A stretch of DNA of 64,000 bases, from positions 288,001-352,000 of the forward strand of contig JASGHG010000001.1 of NCBI GenBank assembly GCA_047602425.1, given 5' to 3'. A program made the position numbers and the translations under genes. The notes beneath the pieces were generated by a model. The model did no database searches. It worked only from the letters and a program-made list of their open reading frames with translations, and had not been told where the DNA came from. Source of the DNA: Nibricoccus sp. GTDB lineage: Bacteria; Verrucomicrobiota; Verrucomicrobiia; Opitutales; Opitutaceae. Numbering within the stretch: position 1 is the stretch's first letter; every line of letters starts with the position of its first letter. Below, one piece after another: positions 1,148 through 45,264 of this stretch.

Positions 1148-1333
1148 GGCGAACGTTCTCTGGTCAGCCACGCCGTACCAGCGGGCAGAGATTAAAAGGA
1201 CGGACGTCATCATAGGCGTTGCGCTGTATGCTACTAATAGGCGGATGAGATAACATAAGGAAGCGGCCCCGGCATGGACTGGACGGAGACAAGCACGTAA
1301 CCGGCACTCCTTAGCCGGAGCCGCAATCTAACA

Positions 1334-2599
1334 ATGATAACGAACAAAGCACTTAATGGCAGAACGCACTCCGGGCAACCGGAAACTCGCTGGGATATCG
1401 CCGTCGACGTTGGGCAAAAAGCACTGGACTGGTACGGTGAACTCGGGGCACAGGCGCACCAAGGCCATATCGCCAATCGCAATGAGGCCATCCTCTCATG
1501 GCTGGAACAACTCAACACCCACGCCCGCCAGCACGGCCTTGGCGGCGTGCGCATCCTCTGCGAACCCACCGGCGGATACGAACGGCGCCTGCTGCGCGCG
1601 GCCCGCCAACTCGGCGGCGCCACCGCTCTGGTCAATGGCGAAGCCGTCCACCAGATGCAAGTGGTCGAGAACAACGATACCGGCAAAAGCGACATCAAAG
1701 ATCCCCGCACGATTTTACTATTGGCCAAGTGGAACAAAACCCTGACCGATCGTCCCCTCCAAGGCGAGTGGCTGCTCCTGCGCGAACTCAACGCCCGCTA
1801 CGACCGGCTCGAACGCGACTCCACCCGCTGTAAAAACAGGATTCATAAACTGCTCCTCTCGCTCTTCCCCGAATTGAGCTTTAAAAACGACTGGCTCTTC
1901 GAAGGCCGCGCCGCCCAAGCCACGATCGCACTCTACGGCCTGAACGCCGCCGCGATCCTCGCCGACGGCCTGGAACGCTGCACCGCCAAACTGCGCAACC
2001 ACCACGTTGGCCCAAAGACCATCCAGCGACTCTTTGCCGATGCCCAGCGCTGCGCCCTGATCGACTCCGACCCCGACTGGCTGGCCCTGCTCGCCGAGGA
2101 CCTGCGCGCCCTCTTTGCCGAACTCACCGTGCTGCGCACCCGCCGAACCAACACCCGCCAGCAAATGATCGCCCTGGTCGAACGCCTGCGCGCCCGCGGC
2201 GCCACCCGCCTGCAAGCCCATCCCGACCTGATCAGCCCCTTCATGCTCGCCCGTGTCCTCGCCGAGACCGGACCGCTCCGGGACTTTGCCCACGTGCGCC
2301 AACTCTGGCGCTACGGCGGACTGAACCTGCGGCCCCGCCAAAGCGGCACGATGCAAGGCCAGCTCCGCCAAGCCAAACGCGGCCGCGCCCGCCTGCGCCA
2401 CGTCCTCGCCCAAGCCGTCCTCAAACGCGTCGTGCACGGACAACTCTACGGGCAATACTACCACGCCAAACGCGACACCGGCATGTGCGGCGGCAAAGCC
2501 ATGACCGCGGTCGCCCGCAAGTTCCTCAAACTGCTCCACGGCCTTGAACGCTCGCCCCAACCCTTCGACCCGAAGCGCGTTTTCCGCTCCGCCGCCTAA
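1334..2599 (+). CDS. IS110-family DEDD transposase/recombinase
   Basis: AVDVG, CEPTG, KSDIKD (D-E-D-D) RuvC-like motifs and C-terminal RQSG serine, AMTAVARK motif. Confidence 0.93.
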   Translation: MITNKALNGRTHSGQPETRWDIAVDVGQKALDWYGELGAQAHQGHIANRNEAILSWLEQLNTHARQHGLGGVRILCEPTGGYERRLLRAARQLGGATALVNGEAVHQMQVVENNDTGKSDIKDPRTILLLAKWNKTLTDRPLQGEWLLLRELNARYDRLERDSTRCKNRIHKLLLSLFPELSFKNDWLFEGRAAQATIALYGLNAAAILADGLERCTAKLRNHHVGPKTIQRLFADAQRCALIDSDPDWLALLAEDLRALFAELTVLRTRRTNTRQQMIALVERLRARGATRLQAHPDLISPFMLARVLAETGPLRDFAHVRQLWRYGGLNLRPRQSGTMQGQLRQAKRGRARLRHVLAQAVLKRVVHGQLYGQYYHAKRDTGMCGGKAMTAVARKFLKLLHGLERSPQPFDPKRVFRSAA

Positions 2600-2808
2600 A
2601 CCACTTCCTTGATCTATTTTAGCCGACATTAACTTTTGCTTTTCCGGGAAACCCGCCGCTCGAGGGCCACCAGCCGTTCCGCACAGCCTCGCTGATGCTC
2701 AACTGTATGTTTTAAAGCCCCGACGGCGGGCCTCCCGGTCCTACCGCCCTTTAAGTATCTGGGCTTGCCCCGGAAGGACGGACAAAGATTTGAGGTGGGT
2801 TGTTATGG

Positions 2809-3651
2809 TTAGTGGTGGAGGGATTCGTAGTCGAGCGGGGAGAGGTAACCGAGGGAGCTGTGGAGGCGCTCGCGGTTGTAGAAGCAAATATAGTCGTGCA
2901 GATGGGCGCGCGCTTCTGCGCGGGTGGCGAAGGTGCGTGGATAAACGCATTCGAGTTTGAGGGTGCTCCAGGCCGATTCCATGGCGGCATTATCGTAGCA
3001 GTTGCCGCGGCGGCTCATGCTGGGGATCGCGCCCATCGCGTGAAGCTTCTGGCGGTACGCCTCGCTGGCATACTGGCAGCCGCGGTCGGTGTGGATGATC
3101 AACCCGGCTTTGGGCTGGCGCGAACGGCGCGCCATTTCCAAGGCCGACAGGACCAGTGGCGTGTCGATTTTTTCACTCATGGCCCAGCCGACCAGCCGGC
3201 GGCTGCATGCATCTTTGAAGGCGCATAAATACAGCCAGCCTTCGCCGGTTCCGATGTAGGTCAGATCGCTCCGCCAAACGTGATCGAGCGCGGTGACCGC
3301 AGGCTTTCCCAAGAGGAGATTCGGGGCGATCGGACCGGGATGGTTGCTGTCGGTGGTTTTGACTTTGTACCGCCGGCGGGGCCGGGCGCTTTGGCGTTGT
3401 TGTTTCATCAGCCGGGCGATGCGTTTGCGGCTGGGTGTGGGCTGGCCCGGGCATCGCAAGACTTGCTGGATACGCGGCGCTCCGTAGGTGCCCCGGCTCC
3501 GCAGGTACGCGGCGGTGATTTTCGGGGATAGTTCCGCATCCGCCAATGTTCGCGGACCCGGATGAGTCTGCCGGTGGCAATACGCGTGGTACCCGCTGGT
3601 GCTCACGCCAAAGGCCGCGCACAGATCGGCGATCGTGTGGTGGGTCTTCAT
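2809..3651 (-). CDS. IS3 transposase OrfB (DDE integrase core)
   Basis: WRSDLTY, HTDRGCQY, DNAAMES motifs; joined to OrfA by -1 frameshift at A8 run (3704-3711). Confidence 0.92.
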   Translation of the reverse strand: MKTHHTIADLCAAFGVSTSGYHAYCHRQTHPGPRTLADAELSPKITAAYLRSRGTYGAPRIQQVLRCPGQPTPSRKRIARLMKQQRQSARPRRRYKVKTTDSNHPGPIAPNLLLGKPAVTALDHVWRSDLTYIGTGEGWLYLCAFKDACSRRLVGWAMSEKIDTPLVLSALEMARRSRQPKAGLIIHTDRGCQYASEAYRQKLHAMGAIPSMSRRGNCYDNAAMESAWSTLKLECVYPRTFATRAEARAHLHDYICFYNRERLHSSLGYLSPLDYESLHH

Positions 3652-3656
3652 CGCAG

Positions 3657-4007
3657 TTATCCTTTCGTACCGCTCGGCGGGGGTTCGGAGAGGATGCCCA
3701 AGGTTTTTTTTAATATGTCGCGCTGGGTGCGCAGGCGCTCGTTCTCCTGACGGAGCGCTCGCAACTCCGCTTGCAACGAACCGATGTCGGCCGGCGTTTG
3801 CGCGCCGCCCCCATGGGGGCGTTCCTCCGTGCGGATCCACGCATACAGGGTCGTCTCGTGGACCCCGATCTTCGGCGCATACTTCGGCACGCTTTCCCCG
3901 CTCAGCCGCCACGCCGCCACGCTGTCGCGGCGAAACGCCTCGTCATACTCAGGCACGTATTTGCGGGGCGGCGGGGCCGCCTCGTTCTTGGTCTCGGGTT
4001 TGTTCAT
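3657..4007 (-). CDS. IS3 transposase OrfA (HTH plus leucine zipper)
   Basis: YDEAFRRDSV...IGVHETTLYAW HTH, ELRALRQENERLRTQRDILKK zipper. Confidence 0.9.
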   Translation of the reverse strand: MNKPETKNEAAPPPRKYVPEYDEAFRRDSVAAWRLSGESVPKYAPKIGVHETTLYAWIRTEERPHGGGAQTPADIGSLQAELRALRQENERLRTQRDILKKTLGILSEPPPSGTKG

Positions 4008-4310
4008 GGACTTATTCTTTCTTCGTAGGCCCTCTTCTTTGTCCACGTTTTCGGGGTAAGCTTAATCGTCCGGGCCAGCCCGCAAAAGCTGGACCAACTC
4101 ATGGGGATCGTCGCGGAGGACCGGGCTCCTGGCCAAAGCGCCAAAACCATATCCATCTCATGTAACCAAAATACCTGCTACATCCTACCCCCGGGGCTCG
4201 TCCTCCGACGAGCTGGAGGCCCATTCTCGGACTCGCCCCTCTCCCCCCTGACTGCAAAATCAAACTTACCCCTTGATTTTACCTAAAGGGGAGCGCCTGG
4301 TTCGGCTCTT

Positions 4311-5099: not shown

Positions 5100-5287
5100 A
5101 CTTTTGCCTAACGATCTCTGGTCAGCCATGCCGAGCTGGCGACTCCAAACTCAAAGCGAACCCCGTCGAGGCATTGCGCTGTATGCTACTAATAGGCGGA
5201 TGAGGTAACATAAGGGGCGGCCCCGGCACGGACTAGACGGTGACAAGCACGTAACCGGCACTCCTTAGCCGGAGCCGCAATCTAACA

Positions 5288-6553
5288 ATGATAACGAACA
5301 AAGCACTTAATGGCAGAACGCACTCCGGGCAACCGGAAACTCGCTGGGATATCGCCGTCGACGTCGGGCAAAAAGCACTGGACTGGTACGGTGAACTCGG
5401 GGCCCAGGCGCACCAAGGCCATATCGCCAATCGCAATGAGGCCATCCTCTCATGGCTGGAACAACTCAACACCCACGCCCGCCAGCACGGCCTTGGCGGC
5501 GTGCGCATCCTCTGCGAACCCACCGGCGGATACGAACGGCGCCTGCTGCGCGCGGCCCGCCAACTCGGCTGCGCCACCGCTCTGGTCAACGGCGAAGCCG
5601 TCCACCAGATGCAAGTGGTCGAGAACAACGATACCGGCAAAAGCGACATCAAAGATCCCCGCACGATTTTACTATTGGCCAAGTGGAACAAAACCCTGAC
5701 CGATCGTCCCCTCCAAGGCGAGTGGCTGCTCCTGCGCGAACTCAACGCCCGCTACGACCGGCTCGAACGCGACTCCACCCGCTGTAAAAACAGGATTCAT
5801 AAACTGCTCCTCTCGCTCTTCCCCGAATTGAGCTTTAAAAACGACTGGCTCTTCGAAGGCCGCGCCGCCCAAGCCACGATCGCACTCTACGGCCTGAACG
5901 CCGCCGCGATCCTCGCCGACGGCCTGGAACGCTGCACCGCCAAACTGCGCAACCACCACGTTGGCCCAAAGACCATCCAGCGACTCTTTGCCGATGCCCA
6001 GCGCTGCGCCCTGATCGACTCCGACCCCGACTGGCTGGCCCTGCTCGCCGAGGACCTGCGCGCCCTCTTTGCCGAACTCACCGTGCTGCGCACCCGCCGA
6101 ACCAACACCCGCCAGCAAATGATCGCCCTGGTCGAACGCCTGCGCGCCCGCGGCGCCACCCGCCTGCAAGCCCATCCCGACCTGATCAGCCCCTTCATGC
6201 TCGCCCGTGTCCTCGCCGAGACCGGACCGCTCCGGGACTTTGCCCACGTGCGCCAACTCTGGCGCTACGGCGGGCTCAACCTGCGGCCCCGCCAAAGCGG
6301 CACCATGCAAGGCCAGCTCCGCCAAGCCAAACGCGGCCGCGCCCGCCTGCGCCACGTCCTCGCCCAAGCCGTCCTCAAACGCGTCGTGCACGGACAACTC
6401 TACGGGCAATACTACCACGCCAAACGCGACACCGGCATGTGCGGCGGCAAAGCCATGACCGCGGTCGCCCGCAAGTTCCTCAAACTGCTCCACGGCCTTG
6501 AACGCTCGCCCCAACCCTTCGACCCGAAGCGCGTTTTCCGCTCCGCCGCCTAA
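5288..6553 (+). CDS. IS110-family DEDD transposase/recombinase
   Basis: Near-identical to 1334-2599 (one G/C amino-acid difference seen). Confidence 0.93.
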   Translation: MITNKALNGRTHSGQPETRWDIAVDVGQKALDWYGELGAQAHQGHIANRNEAILSWLEQLNTHARQHGLGGVRILCEPTGGYERRLLRAARQLGCATALVNGEAVHQMQVVENNDTGKSDIKDPRTILLLAKWNKTLTDRPLQGEWLLLRELNARYDRLERDSTRCKNRIHKLLLSLFPELSFKNDWLFEGRAAQATIALYGLNAAAILADGLERCTAKLRNHHVGPKTIQRLFADAQRCALIDSDPDWLALLAEDLRALFAELTVLRTRRTNTRQQMIALVERLRARGATRLQAHPDLISPFMLARVLAETGPLRDFAHVRQLWRYGGLNLRPRQSGTMQGQLRQAKRGRARLRHVLAQAVLKRVVHGQLYGQYYHAKRDTGMCGGKAMTAVARKFLKLLHGLERSPQPFDPKRVFRSAA

Positions 6554-6597
6554 ACCACTTCCTTGATCTATTTTAGCCGACATTAACTTTTGCTTTT

Positions 6598-6880
6598 CCG
6601 GGAAACCCGCCGCTCGAGGGCCACCAGCCGTTCCGCACAGCCTCGCTGATGCTCAACTGTATGTTTTAAAGCCCCGACGGCGGGCCTCCCGGTCTTACCG
6701 CCCTTTAAGTATCGTCCGGGCCAGCCCGCAAAAGCTGGACCAACTCATGGGGATCGTCGCGGAGGACCGGGCTCCTGGTTAAAGCGCCAAAACCATATCC
6801 ATCTCATGTAACCAAAACCACCTGCTACATCCTGCCCCCGGGGCTCGTCCTCCGACGAGCTGGAGGCCCATTCTCGGACT
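6598..6880 (+). ncRNA. Predicted bridge RNA/seekRNA in IS right end (also at about 13301-13583, and split in copy 1)
   Basis: Manually paired stems CCGGGA/TCCCGG, CCCGCCG/CGGCGGG, GGGC/GCCC enclosing an internal loop with target-matching strands; second multi-stem domain 6714-6879; boundaries approximate. Confidence 0.7.
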
Positions 6881-6947
6881 CGCCCCTCTCCCCCCTGACT
6901 GCAAAATCAAACTTACCCCTTGATTTTACCTAAAGGGGAGCGCCTGG

Positions 6948-7235
6948 TTAGGCTTCTTCTTTATTCTTATTCGCCTCCTGCTCGGTTTTAGAATCGCTAC
7001 AATGATTCAAGCCGCGCCCATCGATCATCATTTTCACACCTGCTACGCAAAAGATAGCAGCAACTATTAACGGGTGCCAACCTATGGTGTTATATGTCAA
7101 CCATGCTAAATCACGGCTAGGTCCAGAATACCATTTTGTGAACGTAGACATGCCTTCAACCATCGCAAAGAAATGAACCGCATAGAGAAATACTCCCAGC
7201 GATATGAATCCAAAACCGAGCTTCGTTTTATTCAT
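6948..7235 (-). CDS. Cassette: small membrane protein (duplicate of 7825-8112)
   Basis: Identical 95-aa protein; two hydrophobic segments; stop overlaps R'' TAAC. Confidence 0.85.
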   Translation of the reverse strand: MNKTKLGFGFISLGVFLYAVHFFAMVEGMSTFTKWYSGPSRDLAWLTYNTIGWHPLIVAAIFCVAGVKMMIDGRGLNHCSDSKTEQEANKNKEEA

Positions 7236-11886: not shown

Positions 11887-13643
11887 TGCTACTAATAGGC
11901 GGATGAGGTAACATAAGGGGCGGCCCCGGCACGGACTAGACGGTGACAAGCACGTAACCGGCACTCCTTAGCCGGAGCCGCAATCTAACCATGATAACGA
12001 ACAAAGCACTTAATGGCAGAACGCACTCCGGGCAACCGGAAACTCGCTGGGATATCGCCGTCGACGTTGGGCAAAAAGCACTGGACTGGTACGGTGAACT
12101 CGGGGCCCAGGCGCACCAAGGCCATATCGCCAATCGCAATGAGGCCATCCTCTCATGGCTGGAACAACTCAACACCCACGCCCGCCAGCACGGCCTTGGC
12201 GGCGTGCGCATCCTCTGCGAACCCACCGGCGGATACGAACGGCGCCTGCTGCGCGCGGCCCGCCAACTCGGCTGCGCCACCGCCTTGGTCAACGGCGAAG
12301 CCGTCCACCAGATGCAAGTGGTCGAGAACAACGATACCGGCAAAAGCGACATCAAAGATCCCCGCACGATTTTACTATTGGCCAAATGGAACAAAACCCT
12401 GACCGATCGTCCCCTCCAAGGCGAGTGGCTGCTCCTGCGCGAACTCAACGCCCGCTACGACCGGCTCGAACGCGACTCCACCCGCTGTAAAAACAGGATT
12501 CATAAACTGCTCCTCTCGCTCTTCCCCGAATTGAGCTTTAAAAACGACTGGCTCTTCGAAGGCCGCGCCGCCCAAGCCACGATCGCACTCTACGGCCTGA
12601 ACGCCGCCGCGATCCTCGCCGACGGCCTGGAACGCTGCACCGCCAAACTGCGCAACCACCACGTTGGCCCAAAGACCATCCAGCGACTCTTCGCCGACGC
12701 CCAGCGCTGCGCCCTGATCGACTCCGACCCCGACTGGCTGGCCCTGCTCGCCGAGGACCTGCGCGCCCTCTTTGCCGAACTCACCGTGCTGCGCACCCGC
12801 CGAACCAACACCCGCCAGCAAATGATCGCCCTGGTCGAACGCCTGCGCGCCCGCGGCGCCACCCGCCTGCAAGCCCATCCCGACCTGATCAGCCCCTTCA
12901 TGCTCGCCCGTGTCCTCGCCGAGACCGGACCGCTCCGGGACTTTGCCCACGTGCGCCAACTCTGGCGCTACGGCGGGCTCAACCTGCGGCCCCGCCAAAG
13001 CGGCACCATGCAAGGCCAACTCCGCCAAGCCAAACGCGGCCGCGCCCGCCTGCGCCACGTCCTCGCCCAAGCCGTCCTCAAACGCGTCGTGCACGGACAA
13101 CTCTACGGGCAATACTACCACGCCAAACGCGACACCGGCATGTGCGGCGGCAAAGCCATGACCGCGGTCGCCCGCAAGTTCCTCAAACTGCTCCACGGCC
13201 TTGAACGCTCGCCCCAACCCTTCGACCCGAAGCGCGTTTTCCGCTCCGCCGCCTAAACCACTTCCTTGATCTATTTTAGCCGACATTAACTTTTGCTTTT
13301 CCGGGAAACCCGCCGCTTGAGGGCCACCAGCCGTTCCGCACAGCCTCGCTGATGCTCAACTGTATGTTTTAAAGCCCCGACGGCGGGCCTCCCGGTCTTA
13401 CCGCCCTTTAAGTATCGTCCGGGCCAGCCCTCAAAAGCTGGACCAACTCATGGGGATCGTCGCGGAGGACCGGGCTCCTGGTTAAAGCGCCAAAACCATA
13501 TCCATCTCATGTAACCAAAACCACCTGCTACATCCTGCCCCCCGGGGCTCGTCCTCCGACGAGCTGGAGGCCCATTCTCGGACTCGCCCCTCTCCCCCCT
13601 GACGGCAAAATCAAACTTACCCCTTGATTTTACCTAAAGGGGA
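11887..13643 (+). mobile_element. IS110-family (IS1111-like) element copy 3, intact, 1757 bp
   Basis: Same ends and organisation as copy 2. Confidence 0.95.
11991..13256 (+). CDS. IS110-family DEDD transposase/recombinase
   Basis: Same protein as copy 2. Confidence 0.93.
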   Translation: MITNKALNGRTHSGQPETRWDIAVDVGQKALDWYGELGAQAHQGHIANRNEAILSWLEQLNTHARQHGLGGVRILCEPTGGYERRLLRAARQLGCATALVNGEAVHQMQVVENNDTGKSDIKDPRTILLLAKWNKTLTDRPLQGEWLLLRELNARYDRLERDSTRCKNRIHKLLLSLFPELSFKNDWLFEGRAAQATIALYGLNAAAILADGLERCTAKLRNHHVGPKTIQRLFADAQRCALIDSDPDWLALLAEDLRALFAELTVLRTRRTNTRQQMIALVERLRARGATRLQAHPDLISPFMLARVLAETGPLRDFAHVRQLWRYGGLNLRPRQSGTMQGQLRQAKRGRARLRHVLAQAVLKRVVHGQLYGQYYHAKRDTGMCGGKAMTAVARKFLKLLHGLERSPQPFDPKRVFRSAA

Positions 13644-15521: not shown

Positions 15522-16088
15522 ATGTTACCCAACGCCAAACCGAACAAAGAGGCCCAAAATCTGCCAAAAAATTCTTCCATGAAAACCGGCGTGCAAAATC
15601 CGGACTGGTCCAAGCCGGTGATCTTCCGCGAATGGCGTGACCACTTGATGCTGGAGCCGTTCGACGATGCTACGAAATCGCGGTATATCCGCGCGCTCAG
15701 AGAGTTCTTCGCCCATTGCAAGAAGTCTGGAAAGCTGGCCTCCATCGGGTTCGCCAAGGCTTACTTGGATGCAGGGACGGTTCAAGGCAAATGCGGTCCG
15801 GTCGATCGCGAGGCGTTGCGGTGGTTTTTCCACACTTACAAAAAAGAAGCCGTCCACCTGCGCCCCCGTTTCCAGCAGGCCACTTTCAAGCCTCAACCGA
15901 TGCCCATCTCCAAGGATGCTCCAGCGTGGGAGGCAAAGCTCATCCGCGCCGTCAGGGTGCGGGGGTTGCTGTGGAACACGGAACAGGCGTATCGCAATTG
16001 GTTGCGCCGGTTCGCCAAGGCCATCGGCCCAATGACTAAACCGGCGTTTCGCGGCTATGACATATTTGAAATGCCGCAGGGCGGATAA
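15522..16088 (+). pseudogene. intI: Truncated integron integrase (N-terminal SAM-like domains only)
   Basis: WEAKLIRAVRVRGLLWNTEQAYRNWLRRF matches the IntI N-terminus; divergent from array; no catalytic R-H-R-Y domain. Confidence 0.8.
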
Positions 16089-16254: not shown

Positions 16255-16329
16255 TGGTGCAAGCGCCGGGAGTCGAACCCGGATCAACGGCTTCGGAGAC
16301 CGCTACACTATCCATTGTGCTACGCCTGC
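16255..16329 (-). tRNA. tRNA-Arg (CCG)
   Basis: 75-nt cloverleaf GCAGGCG...CGCTTGC-ACCA, loop CT-CCG-AA, GTTCGACTC T-arm. Confidence 0.95.
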
Positions 16330-44919: not shown

Positions 44920-44963
44920 CTCTGTTTGAGTGTTTTCAAAGCCTGACTCTGTTTGAGTGTTTT
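44910..44963. repeat. 27-bp perfect tandem duplication
   Basis: CAAAGCCTGACTCTGTTTGAGTGTTTT twice. Confidence 0.9.
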
Positions 44964-45264
44964 TGGCGTCGACGCGGTCGTTCTTGATCTGCGCGTCAGC
45001 GATGATCCGATTCTTGGCCGGGTGCGAGAGTACCACTTCGCTCACGCCAGGGGCCTCCTCAATCAGGTCGTAGATTGTGCCCCAGTTCCAACACGCCTCG
45101 ATGACAACAGCGCTGGGTGCATCCAGCGATCTGAAGTAACTGGCGATAGCTTCCGGTTCGTGACCATTGATCCGGCCTTCCTTGACCAAGTTGCCCTGCT
45201 CGTCGAGTGTGCAGGCAACGCTGTAGCGTTTGTGATGATCGATTCCAGTATACAGTTTTGTCAT
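44960..45264 (-). pseudogene. Truncated IS110-family transposase (N-terminal DEDD domain), distinct from the attC-targeting IS
   Basis: YTGIDHHK, VIEACWNW, IKNDRVDAK then breaks at the duplication. Confidence 0.85.

Follow-up and report, generated by a model that had tools for sequence, protein, structure and literature searches.

The present study deals with a 64,000-nt stretch of the Nibricoccus sp. genome (GenBank assembly GCA_047602425.1, contig JASGHG010000001.1, positions 288,001 to 352,000; the whole stretch is called the window here) and, within it, with an insertion sequence of the IS110 family that lies in an integron-type cassette array occupying the first 14 kb of the window. Behind the transposase gene of this element a hairpin is encoded, hairpin 1, which very probably reads the target as one half of a guide RNA with two loops (a "bridge" or "seek" RNA); this RNA would direct the element into the integron recombination sites, attC. 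We hold with high confidence that the roughly 190 nt after the transposase gene (about 6594-6782) encode this two-loop bridge RNA and that insertion into attC is RNA-guided. The mechanism is not new, because attC-seeking insertion sequences with seekRNAs were shown experimentally in 2024; the branch in which it is seen here is uncharacterised, widespread and distant. The element is a well-preserved, apparently active member of this known type of RNA-guided mobile element. The features of the guide region are as follows.

6598..6692, + strand: hairpin 1, with the target-binding loop, counterpart of the short seekRNA (from the fold, covariation and the position 3' of the transposase gene in relatives).
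6623..6632, + strand: 5' loop strand of hairpin 1, ACCAGCCGUU (as DNA, ACCAGCCGTT), which pairs with the + strand right flank AGCG(G/C)CTGGT.
6657..6663, + strand: 3' loop strand of hairpin 1, CUGUA plus UG, which repeats 5 nt of the left flank, the shared A among them, followed by the element's first 2 nt.
6698..6762, + strand: hairpin 2, with the donor-binding loop; CCGC (6698-6701) and GCGG (6759-6762) form its basal stem, and CCAGC/GCUGG its cap stem around 6721-6738.
6708..6713, + strand: donor loop 5' strand AGUAUC, which pairs with GCTACT of the left end (5185-5190), with one mismatch here.
6749..6754, + strand: donor loop 3' strand GGGG-A-U, which spells the circle junction: the element's final 4 nt, the shared A, then one nt of the left end, its first.
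6766..6781, + strand: ACCGGGC and UCCUGG, with which UCCCGGU (6687-6693) and CCGGGA (6598-6603), respectively, could pair instead, from the RNAalifold consensus and the fold of 6594-6790.

Three copies of the element lie in the cassette array of the window. When the entire 5.16-Mb genome was searched with 5169-6938 as the query, 8 full-length copies and 1 copy in two pieces were found (98-100% identity, the full-length ones 99-100%), and 9/9 genomic copies occupied the same attC position in the same orientation. The limits 5184-6938 follow from comparison of the junctions with empty sites such as GTTGCGCTGT-A-GCGGCTGGTTCGGC. In 9/9 copies the left junction reads ...GC(T/A)(G/C)TA followed by TGCTACTAATAGG..., and the right junction ...CCTAAAGGGG followed by AGCG(G/C)CTGGTTNGGC. 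A single A is common to the element edge and the target on either side (5183 and 6939), with no multi-base target duplication. On the + strand, the attC-like sites of the array read GCC(G/T/C)AAC ... GGCGTTG(T/C)GCT(C/G)T AGCG(C/G)CTGGTT(A/C/G)GGC. Short open reading frames (ORFs) on the - strand begin directly beside these sites, and therefore the + strand is the conventional attC bottom strand. The copies in the window and the site that holds copy 2 are as follows.

1229..2759, + strand: copy 1, left part, cut within the donor loop 5' strand.
4065..4291, + strand: copy 1, right part, whose first 3 nt, ATC, are the duplication from an IS3-family insertion.
5106..5183, + strand: interrupted attC, left part, GCCTAAC...TTGCGCTGTA.
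5184..6938, + strand: copy 2, the complete insertion sequence of 1755 bp (from the nine-copy comparison and from junctions compared with empty attC sites).
6939..6953, + strand: interrupted attC, right part, AGCGCCTGGTTAGGC.
11887..13642, + strand: copy 3, complete, with C>T in the hairpin 1 stem and the G-U pair kept.

A first reading of the DNA from its letters (the sequence-only reading) had placed the right end of the element near 6713, and the true end is 6938; the early call arose because copy 1 is interrupted there by an IS3-family element. This insertion (1305 bp, 2760-4064, 3-bp duplication ATC) interrupts the donor-loop strand AGTATC and carries an ORF on the - strand (2809-3912, 367 aa; NF033516 at 2.8e-96, rve domains). 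Copy 1 has probably lost its donor guide through the IS3 insertion in the loop. The 246 nt 3' of hairpin 1 (6693-6938) belong to the element: they are present in all 8 full copies, and in copy 1 the terminal 246-nt region is separated by the IS3-family insertion. The hairpin is thus in the right-hand non-coding region and lies 246 nt inside the end of the element instead of at it. The non-coding DNA amounts to 385 nt 3' of the transposase gene and 104 nt 5' of it.

The 5' loop strand had been read as complementary to the right flank with one G-U pair and with an extra mismatch at the GCGCC sites, and the comparison of the 9 host copies agreed. ACCAGCCGUU pairs with AGCGGCTGGT, the right flank of 4 copies, with one G-U pair, and with AGCGCCTGGT, the flank of the other 5, with one extra C-C mismatch. 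CUGUA (6657-6661) of the 3' loop strand is identical to the left flank, and this claimed identity is exact in 7/9 host copies; the left flank terminus is CTGTA in those 7, CTCTA in 1 and CAGTA in 1. Empty sites were counted with the pattern A[AG]CGNCTGGT, sites not fitting it being uncounted. There were 35 pattern matches, of which 24 (in three arrays and in the usual attC context) were kept and 11 scattered ones dropped, and they were compared with the 9 occupied sites. The CTGT left flank was found in 7/9 occupied and 5/24 empty sites (Fisher p 0.0046), and G at right flank position 5 in 4/9 occupied and 2/24 empty sites (Fisher p 0.034). The variants that match the guides are thus commoner among occupied sites.

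Protein relatives of the transposase are numerous (36-81% identity) and mostly metagenomic, the named ones belonging to Opitutales and other Verrucomicrobiota; 78 relative loci were taken from genomes and 80 from metagenomes. Their junctions were set without the guides, from a conserved left-end motif and from the GTT of the attC end. In the first set of 18 distinct pairs per side, the 3' loop 7-mer equalled the left junction at 122/126 positions, compared with 83.8 ± 4.9 in shuffled pairs; on the right, 160/180 positions of the 5' loop 10-mer paired with the flank, compared with 144.6 ± 2.8. Both loop strands thus covary with their targets in homologues, at 0/20000 shuffles each, and the outcome that the sequence-only reading had named as refuting it, loops that fail to follow their targets, did not arise. 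The left match window was sharp: positions -5 to +2 agreed in 89-100% of the 18 pairs, and positions -7, -6 and +3 in 11-17%. The first two bases of the element vary by lineage (TG, GG, TC, TA, CA), and the last two matching positions of the 3' loop strand would read the donor in a handshake-like manner.

The wider left set comprised 78 loci with a left end and a flank, which gave 54 distinct guide/junction pairs with 37 guides. Here 324/378 positions were identical, compared with 204 ± 7.8 after shuffling (0/20000); 23 pairs matched at 7/7, 20 at 6/7 and 11 at fewer positions. In an unanchored search, the exact cognate 7-mer was found in the expected 470-nt stretch in 29/68 loci, always at the junction, compared with 3.4% for non-cognate 7-mers. 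On the right, the 9-mer with at most one mismatch was found in 31/85 loci (vs. 7.8%). The full reverse-complement guide with at most 2 mismatches was not found for L034 and L012; anchoring on the attC end revealed the cause, frequent mismatches at positions 2 and 5. Right junctions taken by a loose pattern were wrong in several loci (L027, L032, L125, L159, L162); 19/45 of them had a matching inverse core within 130 nt, and this set was not relied on.

In the guide-confirmed right flanks, positions 9-11 were almost always GTT, with attC-end sequence rich in A/C/G behind it, and therefore the whole clade seems aimed at attC-type ends. The guides appear to have been rewritten repeatedly (37 left-guide variants) to follow the host attC family, with the invariant GTT kept. 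The guide/flank covariation supports the earlier proposal of an RNA-programmed recombinase aimed at the attC family of this host. When one host attC was folded as DNA, its long central arms were paired and AGCGCCTG, the target of the 10-nt guide, was unpaired; in the model of this one site AGCGCCTG would be the spacer between the L and R boxes, a reading whose mechanistic meaning is speculative. In host attC, the partner of the long guide is the strand whose folding serves integrase recombination, on the stretch unpaired between the R and L boxes, and therefore the elements may read structured or single-stranded attC, not only the duplex. The right junctions of L105/L106, L109 and L139 had a crossover base G on the right, and the left side had A (L106 and L109). 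In these loci the one-base core may not have been the same in donor and target.

Hairpin 1 starts 45 nt past the stop codon. The stems CCGGGA/TCCCGG, CCCGCCG/CGGCGGG, TCG/CGA and GGGC/GCCC, the cap hairpin and the large internal loop, which the sequence-only reading had drawn, were recovered. Its base stem joins CCGGGA (6598-6603) to TCCCGG (6687-6692), and the minimum free energy (MFE) and centroid folds of 6590-6700 both contain CCCGCCG/CGGCGGG, TCG/CGA, GGGC/GCCC and the cap hairpin. This region folded at -48.3 kcal/mol, compared with -33.9 ± 3.4 for shuffles (z -4.21; 0/200 shuffles as stable). The stems contain many G-U pairs on the + strand, and TCG>TTG in the stem of copy 3 makes a G-U pair, as noted earlier. 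A search of the window with Rfam 15 at gathering thresholds returned tRNA only, and no family on hairpin 1.

A first covariance model, built on the three copies in the window and thus on a single lineage, gave 6 hairpin 1 matches in the 78 genome loci. Over 86 loci it gave 31 matches, 30 of them on the transposase strand directly 3' of the gene; a weak minus-strand match in L096 (E 0.57) was dropped, and the truncated L110 was left out of the 3' guide counts. The second model, built from 21 of those matches, gave 86 matches in 84/100 further loci, always on the transposase strand and 3' of the gene. In all, 115 related loci carry hairpin 1 directly 3' of the transposase gene; among them are metagenome-assembled genomes (MAGs) labelled Desulfobacterota, Nitrospirota, Neomarinimicrobiota, Bacteroidota, Latescibacterota and others beside Verrucomicrobiota. 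In the first, model-fitted alignment, 95.2% of cells were paired and both sides had changed in 23/27 pairs, which 0/500 shuffles reached; slid controls gave 27-50% paired. The minus-strand matches of model R1 to the window hairpins (~24 bits) were taken to be a palindrome echo, and alignment A4 was unused.

Some loci deviated from the usual arrangement. L025 (1410-1513 and 2166-2269) and L019 (2305-2430 and 2714-2839) had two hairpin 1 copies a few hundred bases apart, and L019 had a long insertion in the hairpin 1 cap. L039 is a clade member on a 2.7-kb contig of a MAG labelled as a Halobacteriota archaeon; its nearest relatives are bacterial, and the archaeal label is likely a binning error.

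The guide had been read earlier as the target loop only. The target loop stands, and it is followed by a donor loop in hairpin 2, which had been missed. With the hairpin 2 model, this hairpin was found directly after hairpin 1 in 72/97 loci. Its basal stem was 98.5% paired in a structure-unfitted MAFFT alignment of 17 lineages, with both sides changed in 3/4 pairs (CCGC/GCGG, CTGC/GCAG, CGGC/GCCG, CCAC/GTGG, TGGT/GCCA). Hairpin 2 covaries with the element's own left and right ends. The six bases of the donor 5' strand paired with the left end at 50/54 positions, compared with 36.6 ± 2.9 in shuffled pairs (2/20000), and in the wider set at 86/96, compared with 70.6 ± 2.8 (0/20000); examples are AGUAUA with TATACT, AGUAAG with CTTACT and CGUAGC with GCTACG. 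The donor 3' strand matched the last four bases of the right end at 29/32 positions, compared with 15.9 ± 2.65 (4/20000), with an invariant A after them, and in the wider set at 33/36, compared with 16.3 ± 3.2 (0/20000), with A as the next letter in 18/18. These position-specific tests replaced an alignment-free donor test.

The enzyme of the element carries the domains and residues of the IS110 family.

5288..6553, + strand: transposase/recombinase gene, 421 aa, IS110 family (from Pfam domains and catalytic residues).

The Pfam matches DEDD_Tnp_IS110 (PF01548, 8e-16) and Transposase_20 (PF02371, 9.7e-14) were both above cut-offs, and D25, E77, D120, D123, S337 and G338 were invariant across 22 relatives. 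A profile of the relatives aligned the catalytic residues with the DEDD and Ser-Gly motifs of IS621 and ISCro4, the matching IS621 motifs being IDTAK, CIEAT, KTDTVD and ESGS; the roles of the DEDD and Ser-Gly residues were assigned from passages of PMC11208158. Single-sequence PDB matches (~1e-5) covered the C-terminal domain only, and the profile matches (E 5e-11) chiefly that domain.

As judged from sequence comparison, the transposase is only marginally similar to IS4321, IS621 and ISCro4. IS4321 (plasmid R751, IS1111 group) matched the 421-aa protein at a BLASTP E of 0.012 with an hhalign probability of 28%, and it is nearer to the other IS110 enzyme of the host genome (5e-11) than either is to the 421-aa protein. 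The NCBIfam IS110 model NF033542 scored 110.5 bits, below its curated cut-off of 140 bits. The earlier suggestion of a distinct lineage therefore holds on the two values for IS4321 (BLASTP) and NF033542. Among 72,556 plasmids, tblastn with the transposase returned 166 records, all under 60% identity (best 22-36%), and Klebsiella and Pseudomonas were outside the ten commonest genera listed for these matches. A blastn search of 5100-6800 against the plasmids was without match, and tblastn with IS4321 returned IS4321 and IS5075 copies only. Grouping of the transposase with ISPa21, ISPst6 and ISKpn4 seems unlikely, judged indirectly from the plasmid matches and the IS4321 comparison.

In the mechanism that we propose, the 5' strand of hairpin 1 (10 nt) would base-pair with the attC + strand right of the crossover, and its 3' strand (5 nt), having the left + strand sequence, would pair with the - strand. 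The latter would extend by 2 nt that spell the first bases of the element, like the handshake guides of IS621. The 5' strand of hairpin 2 would pair with the left end of the element, and its 3' strand would spell the last 4 nt of the right end and the shared A. By analogy with IS621 and the IS1111 seekRNA elements, the DEDD/Ser recombinase would bind the RNA. The RNA-protein complex would synapse the circularised element with an attC site, and the shared A, which lies 8 nt away from the GTT at the end of attC, would be the point of strand exchange. A circle intermediate and a junction promoter are presumed in this scheme.

Several points weigh against this interpretation. That the RNA is made, bound and required is our inference, and a consensus scan of 5100-7000 found neither a promoter nor a terminator on the + strand. 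Pairing of the right guide is imperfect: flank position 5 pairs in 50% and position 2 in 78% of the 18 pairs, and 5/9 host sites carry the C-C mismatch at position 5. Hairpin 2 alone gave z +1.33, with 181/200 shuffles folding as well, and the whole 197 nt (6594-6790) gave a modest z of -1.54, with 11/200 shuffles as stable. At the base of hairpin 1, the 3' strand can pair downstream instead (RNAalifold, fold of 6594-6790). The alignment-free donor test was weak, since 104/5040 and 912/5040 permutations reached the observed sums. The first alignment of hairpin 1 was fitted to a covariance model, which favours structure, and alignments A5, A9 and A10 were fitted to their source models. The shuffle tests ignore the shared ancestry of the elements, and some of the 9 insertions may copy one event, as two share 120 nt of left flank. 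The weakness of shared descent is lessened by L093, a natural reprogramming between close relatives: with ~78% protein identity and a near-identical scaffold, its guide differs at positions 5-7 and its flank differs to match, the left guide CUGGA equalling the left flank CTGGA where its sisters have CTGTA.

We consider it improbable that hairpin 1 functions alone as a target-only seekRNA, with the protein recognising the ends through subterminal repeats and the hairpin 2 matches a by-product of conserved ends. According to a passage of PMC11187229, the short 82-nt seekRNA of ISEc11 alone supported movement, and this possibility would also fit hairpin 2 being without energetic signal, the weak alignment-free donor test and donor sequences that are few in kind (7 classes in the alignment-free test, 16 distinct pairs in the wider set). 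However, position-specific covariation was found with both ends (86/96 and 33/36, each 0/20000 shuffles), the basal stem of hairpin 2 showed compensatory changes on an unfitted alignment, and the three example pairings given above are hard to explain without pairing. A further reading is that the hairpin acts as DNA, the fold of the single-stranded + strand guiding target choice by DNA-DNA pairing. In IS200/IS605 elements, subterminal hairpins guide target choice in this way, and covariation alone would look alike for an RNA and for one DNA strand of that sense. We nevertheless find this very improbable: the + strand stems have many G-U pairs, hairpin 1 lies 246 nt inside the end and not at a cleavage site, and the enzyme has the domains and catalytic residues of the IS110 family, whose guides are RNA in the experiments reported in passages of PMC11208160 and PMC11187229.

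Least credible to us is that the structure terminates transcription, or stabilises or regulates the transposase mRNA, with flank matches by chance. Its position 45 nt after the stop codon and its G+C-rich sequence would suit such a role, but no T-run follows hairpin 1, no + strand terminator was called in 5100-7000, and the stems are kept while the loop strands change and track the flanks in 37 guide variants. The two-loop bridge RNA accounts for the finding that all copies of the element are located in integron recombination sites. Within its fold, the alternative pairings at 6766..6781 would close both hairpins into a three-way junction.

Studies have shown by experiment the seekRNAs of the attC-targeting IS1111-family elements ISKpn4 and ISPst6, in which, as passages of that report describe, the top-strand match lies 5' of the bottom-strand match (Siddiquee et al. 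2024, PMC11187229). In the element studied here, similarly to ISKpn4, ISPst6 and ISPa25, the guide RNA is encoded after the transposase gene as a hairpin of ~80-100 nt, two short segments match opposite target strands with the top-strand match first, and the target is one end of an integron attC. The longer 145-170-nt form of seekRNA mentioned in PMC11187229 is comparable to hairpins 1 and 2 together. The layout also matches the IS1111 type (short left end, long right end, RNA after the gene, top-strand match first), as it does the IS1111-group bridge RNAs such as ISPa11 and ISAzs32, which passages of Durrant et al. 2024 (PMC11208160) place in the right end, here also a long one beside a short left end. 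In contrast, IS1111 enzymes are tightly clustered at 330-350 aa in the parts of PMC11187229 that deal with them, and the protein here has 421 aa and is barely similar to IS4321. The subterminal repeats of the IS1111 group are 7-17 bp long; the element has an imperfect pair of 15 nt (80% complementary), and no long subterminal repeat is conserved in the studied clade. A non-coding region downstream of the gene occurs in some IS110-type elements too, according to a passage of Siddiquee et al. (PMC11187229).

The likeness to the IS621 bridge RNA, as far as passages of PMC11208160 and PMC11208158 describe it, comprises two internal loops, for target and donor, one strand per loop pairing with the top and one with the bottom DNA strand, handshake-like bases that read the partner DNA, and a DEDD and Ser-Gly active site. 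Unlike in IS621, the RNA is in the right end and not the left, the strands come in the opposite order, the core is one shared A instead of the dinucleotide CT, and the protein is ~95 aa longer between the RuvC and Tnp domains. In many IS1111 orthologues the donor-binding bases are in a multi-loop, according to a passage of PMC11208160, whereas here they are in a simple internal loop of a second hairpin, a three-way junction being also possible. A full-text literature search on attC, bridge RNA, IS110 and IS1111-attC found nothing on the studied clade. We put forward only tentatively, as a rather doubtful proposal, that the element belongs to a large, distinct clade specialised on attC that arose independently of the proteobacterial IS1111-attC group. 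The repeated rewriting of its guides and the reading of structured or single-stranded attC are parts of this proposal.

The clade adds a deep-branching natural set of bridge RNAs with readable guides, of 10 nt and 5+2 nt for the target and 6 nt and 4+1 nt for the donor, and with a single-base core. Its many naturally reprogrammed variants form a comparison set for mismatch tolerance, for example at flank position 5. For the host, each insertion cuts an attC in two at a distance of 8 nt from the GTT end, so that neighbouring cassettes should be harder to excise or shuffle.

The ends of the element contain further features that may belong to a junction promoter.

5184..5196, + strand: left end TGCTACTAATAGG, with the donor sequence predicted to be read by hairpin 2 and a conserved TAGG.
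6917..6938, + strand: right end CCCTTGATTTTACCTAAAGGGG, with one arm of the subterminal repeat, TTGATT as a -35-like box (6920-6925) and, at the terminus, the GGGG predicted to be read by hairpin 2.

TTGA(C/T) recurs ~13-17 nt from the right end in relatives, and TACTAA (5187-5192) could serve a junction promoter as its -10 box. From the letters of the two ends we infer that, once joined, they would give TTGATT, 17 nt and TACTAA across the circle junction, as a predicted promoter. Subterminal inverted repeats had been said not to be evident. With the true end an imperfect repeat was found, 5203-5217 with 6917-6931 (15 nt, 80% complementary), one among 65 inverted pairs in the element, which corrects that statement; across the relatives inspected only the TAGG/CCTA pair recurs, and no long subterminal repeat is conserved. 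In L102 (~1718-1770), the terminal stretch of the right end, AACTTTACAACCTAAGAGAGA, occurs twice in tandem.

Sites of the one attC family form at least three arrays in the host genome (~288-302 kb, 921-928 kb and 5131-5146 kb) and also occur as scattered single sites at 1.49 and 4.13 Mb, and the element has visited all of them. The copies at 293 kb and 924 kb (L001 and L003) have an identical 120-nt left flank and differing right flanks, which suggests a duplicated cassette or recombination between distant copies. The genome also carries a second, unrelated, single-copy IS110-family transposase (G000:C1:5137681-5138754; locus L170 1483-2595) of 370 aa, with 240.6 bits to NF033542; it has a long non-coding stretch upstream and is found in the 5.13-Mb cassette array with a copy of the studied element on either side. 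In the window, a short fragment at 44962-45249 on the - strand (G000:C1:332962-333249) matched the N-terminal part of the IS110 model at 37.8 bits (E 2.9e-9). At the upstream end of the window's array, diverging from the cassettes, an ORF of 188 aa (15522-16088, + strand) had a weak Phage_int_SAM_4 match (1.7e-6) and may be a remnant of an integron integrase. It is adjoined by a tRNA gene at 16258-16329 on the - strand.

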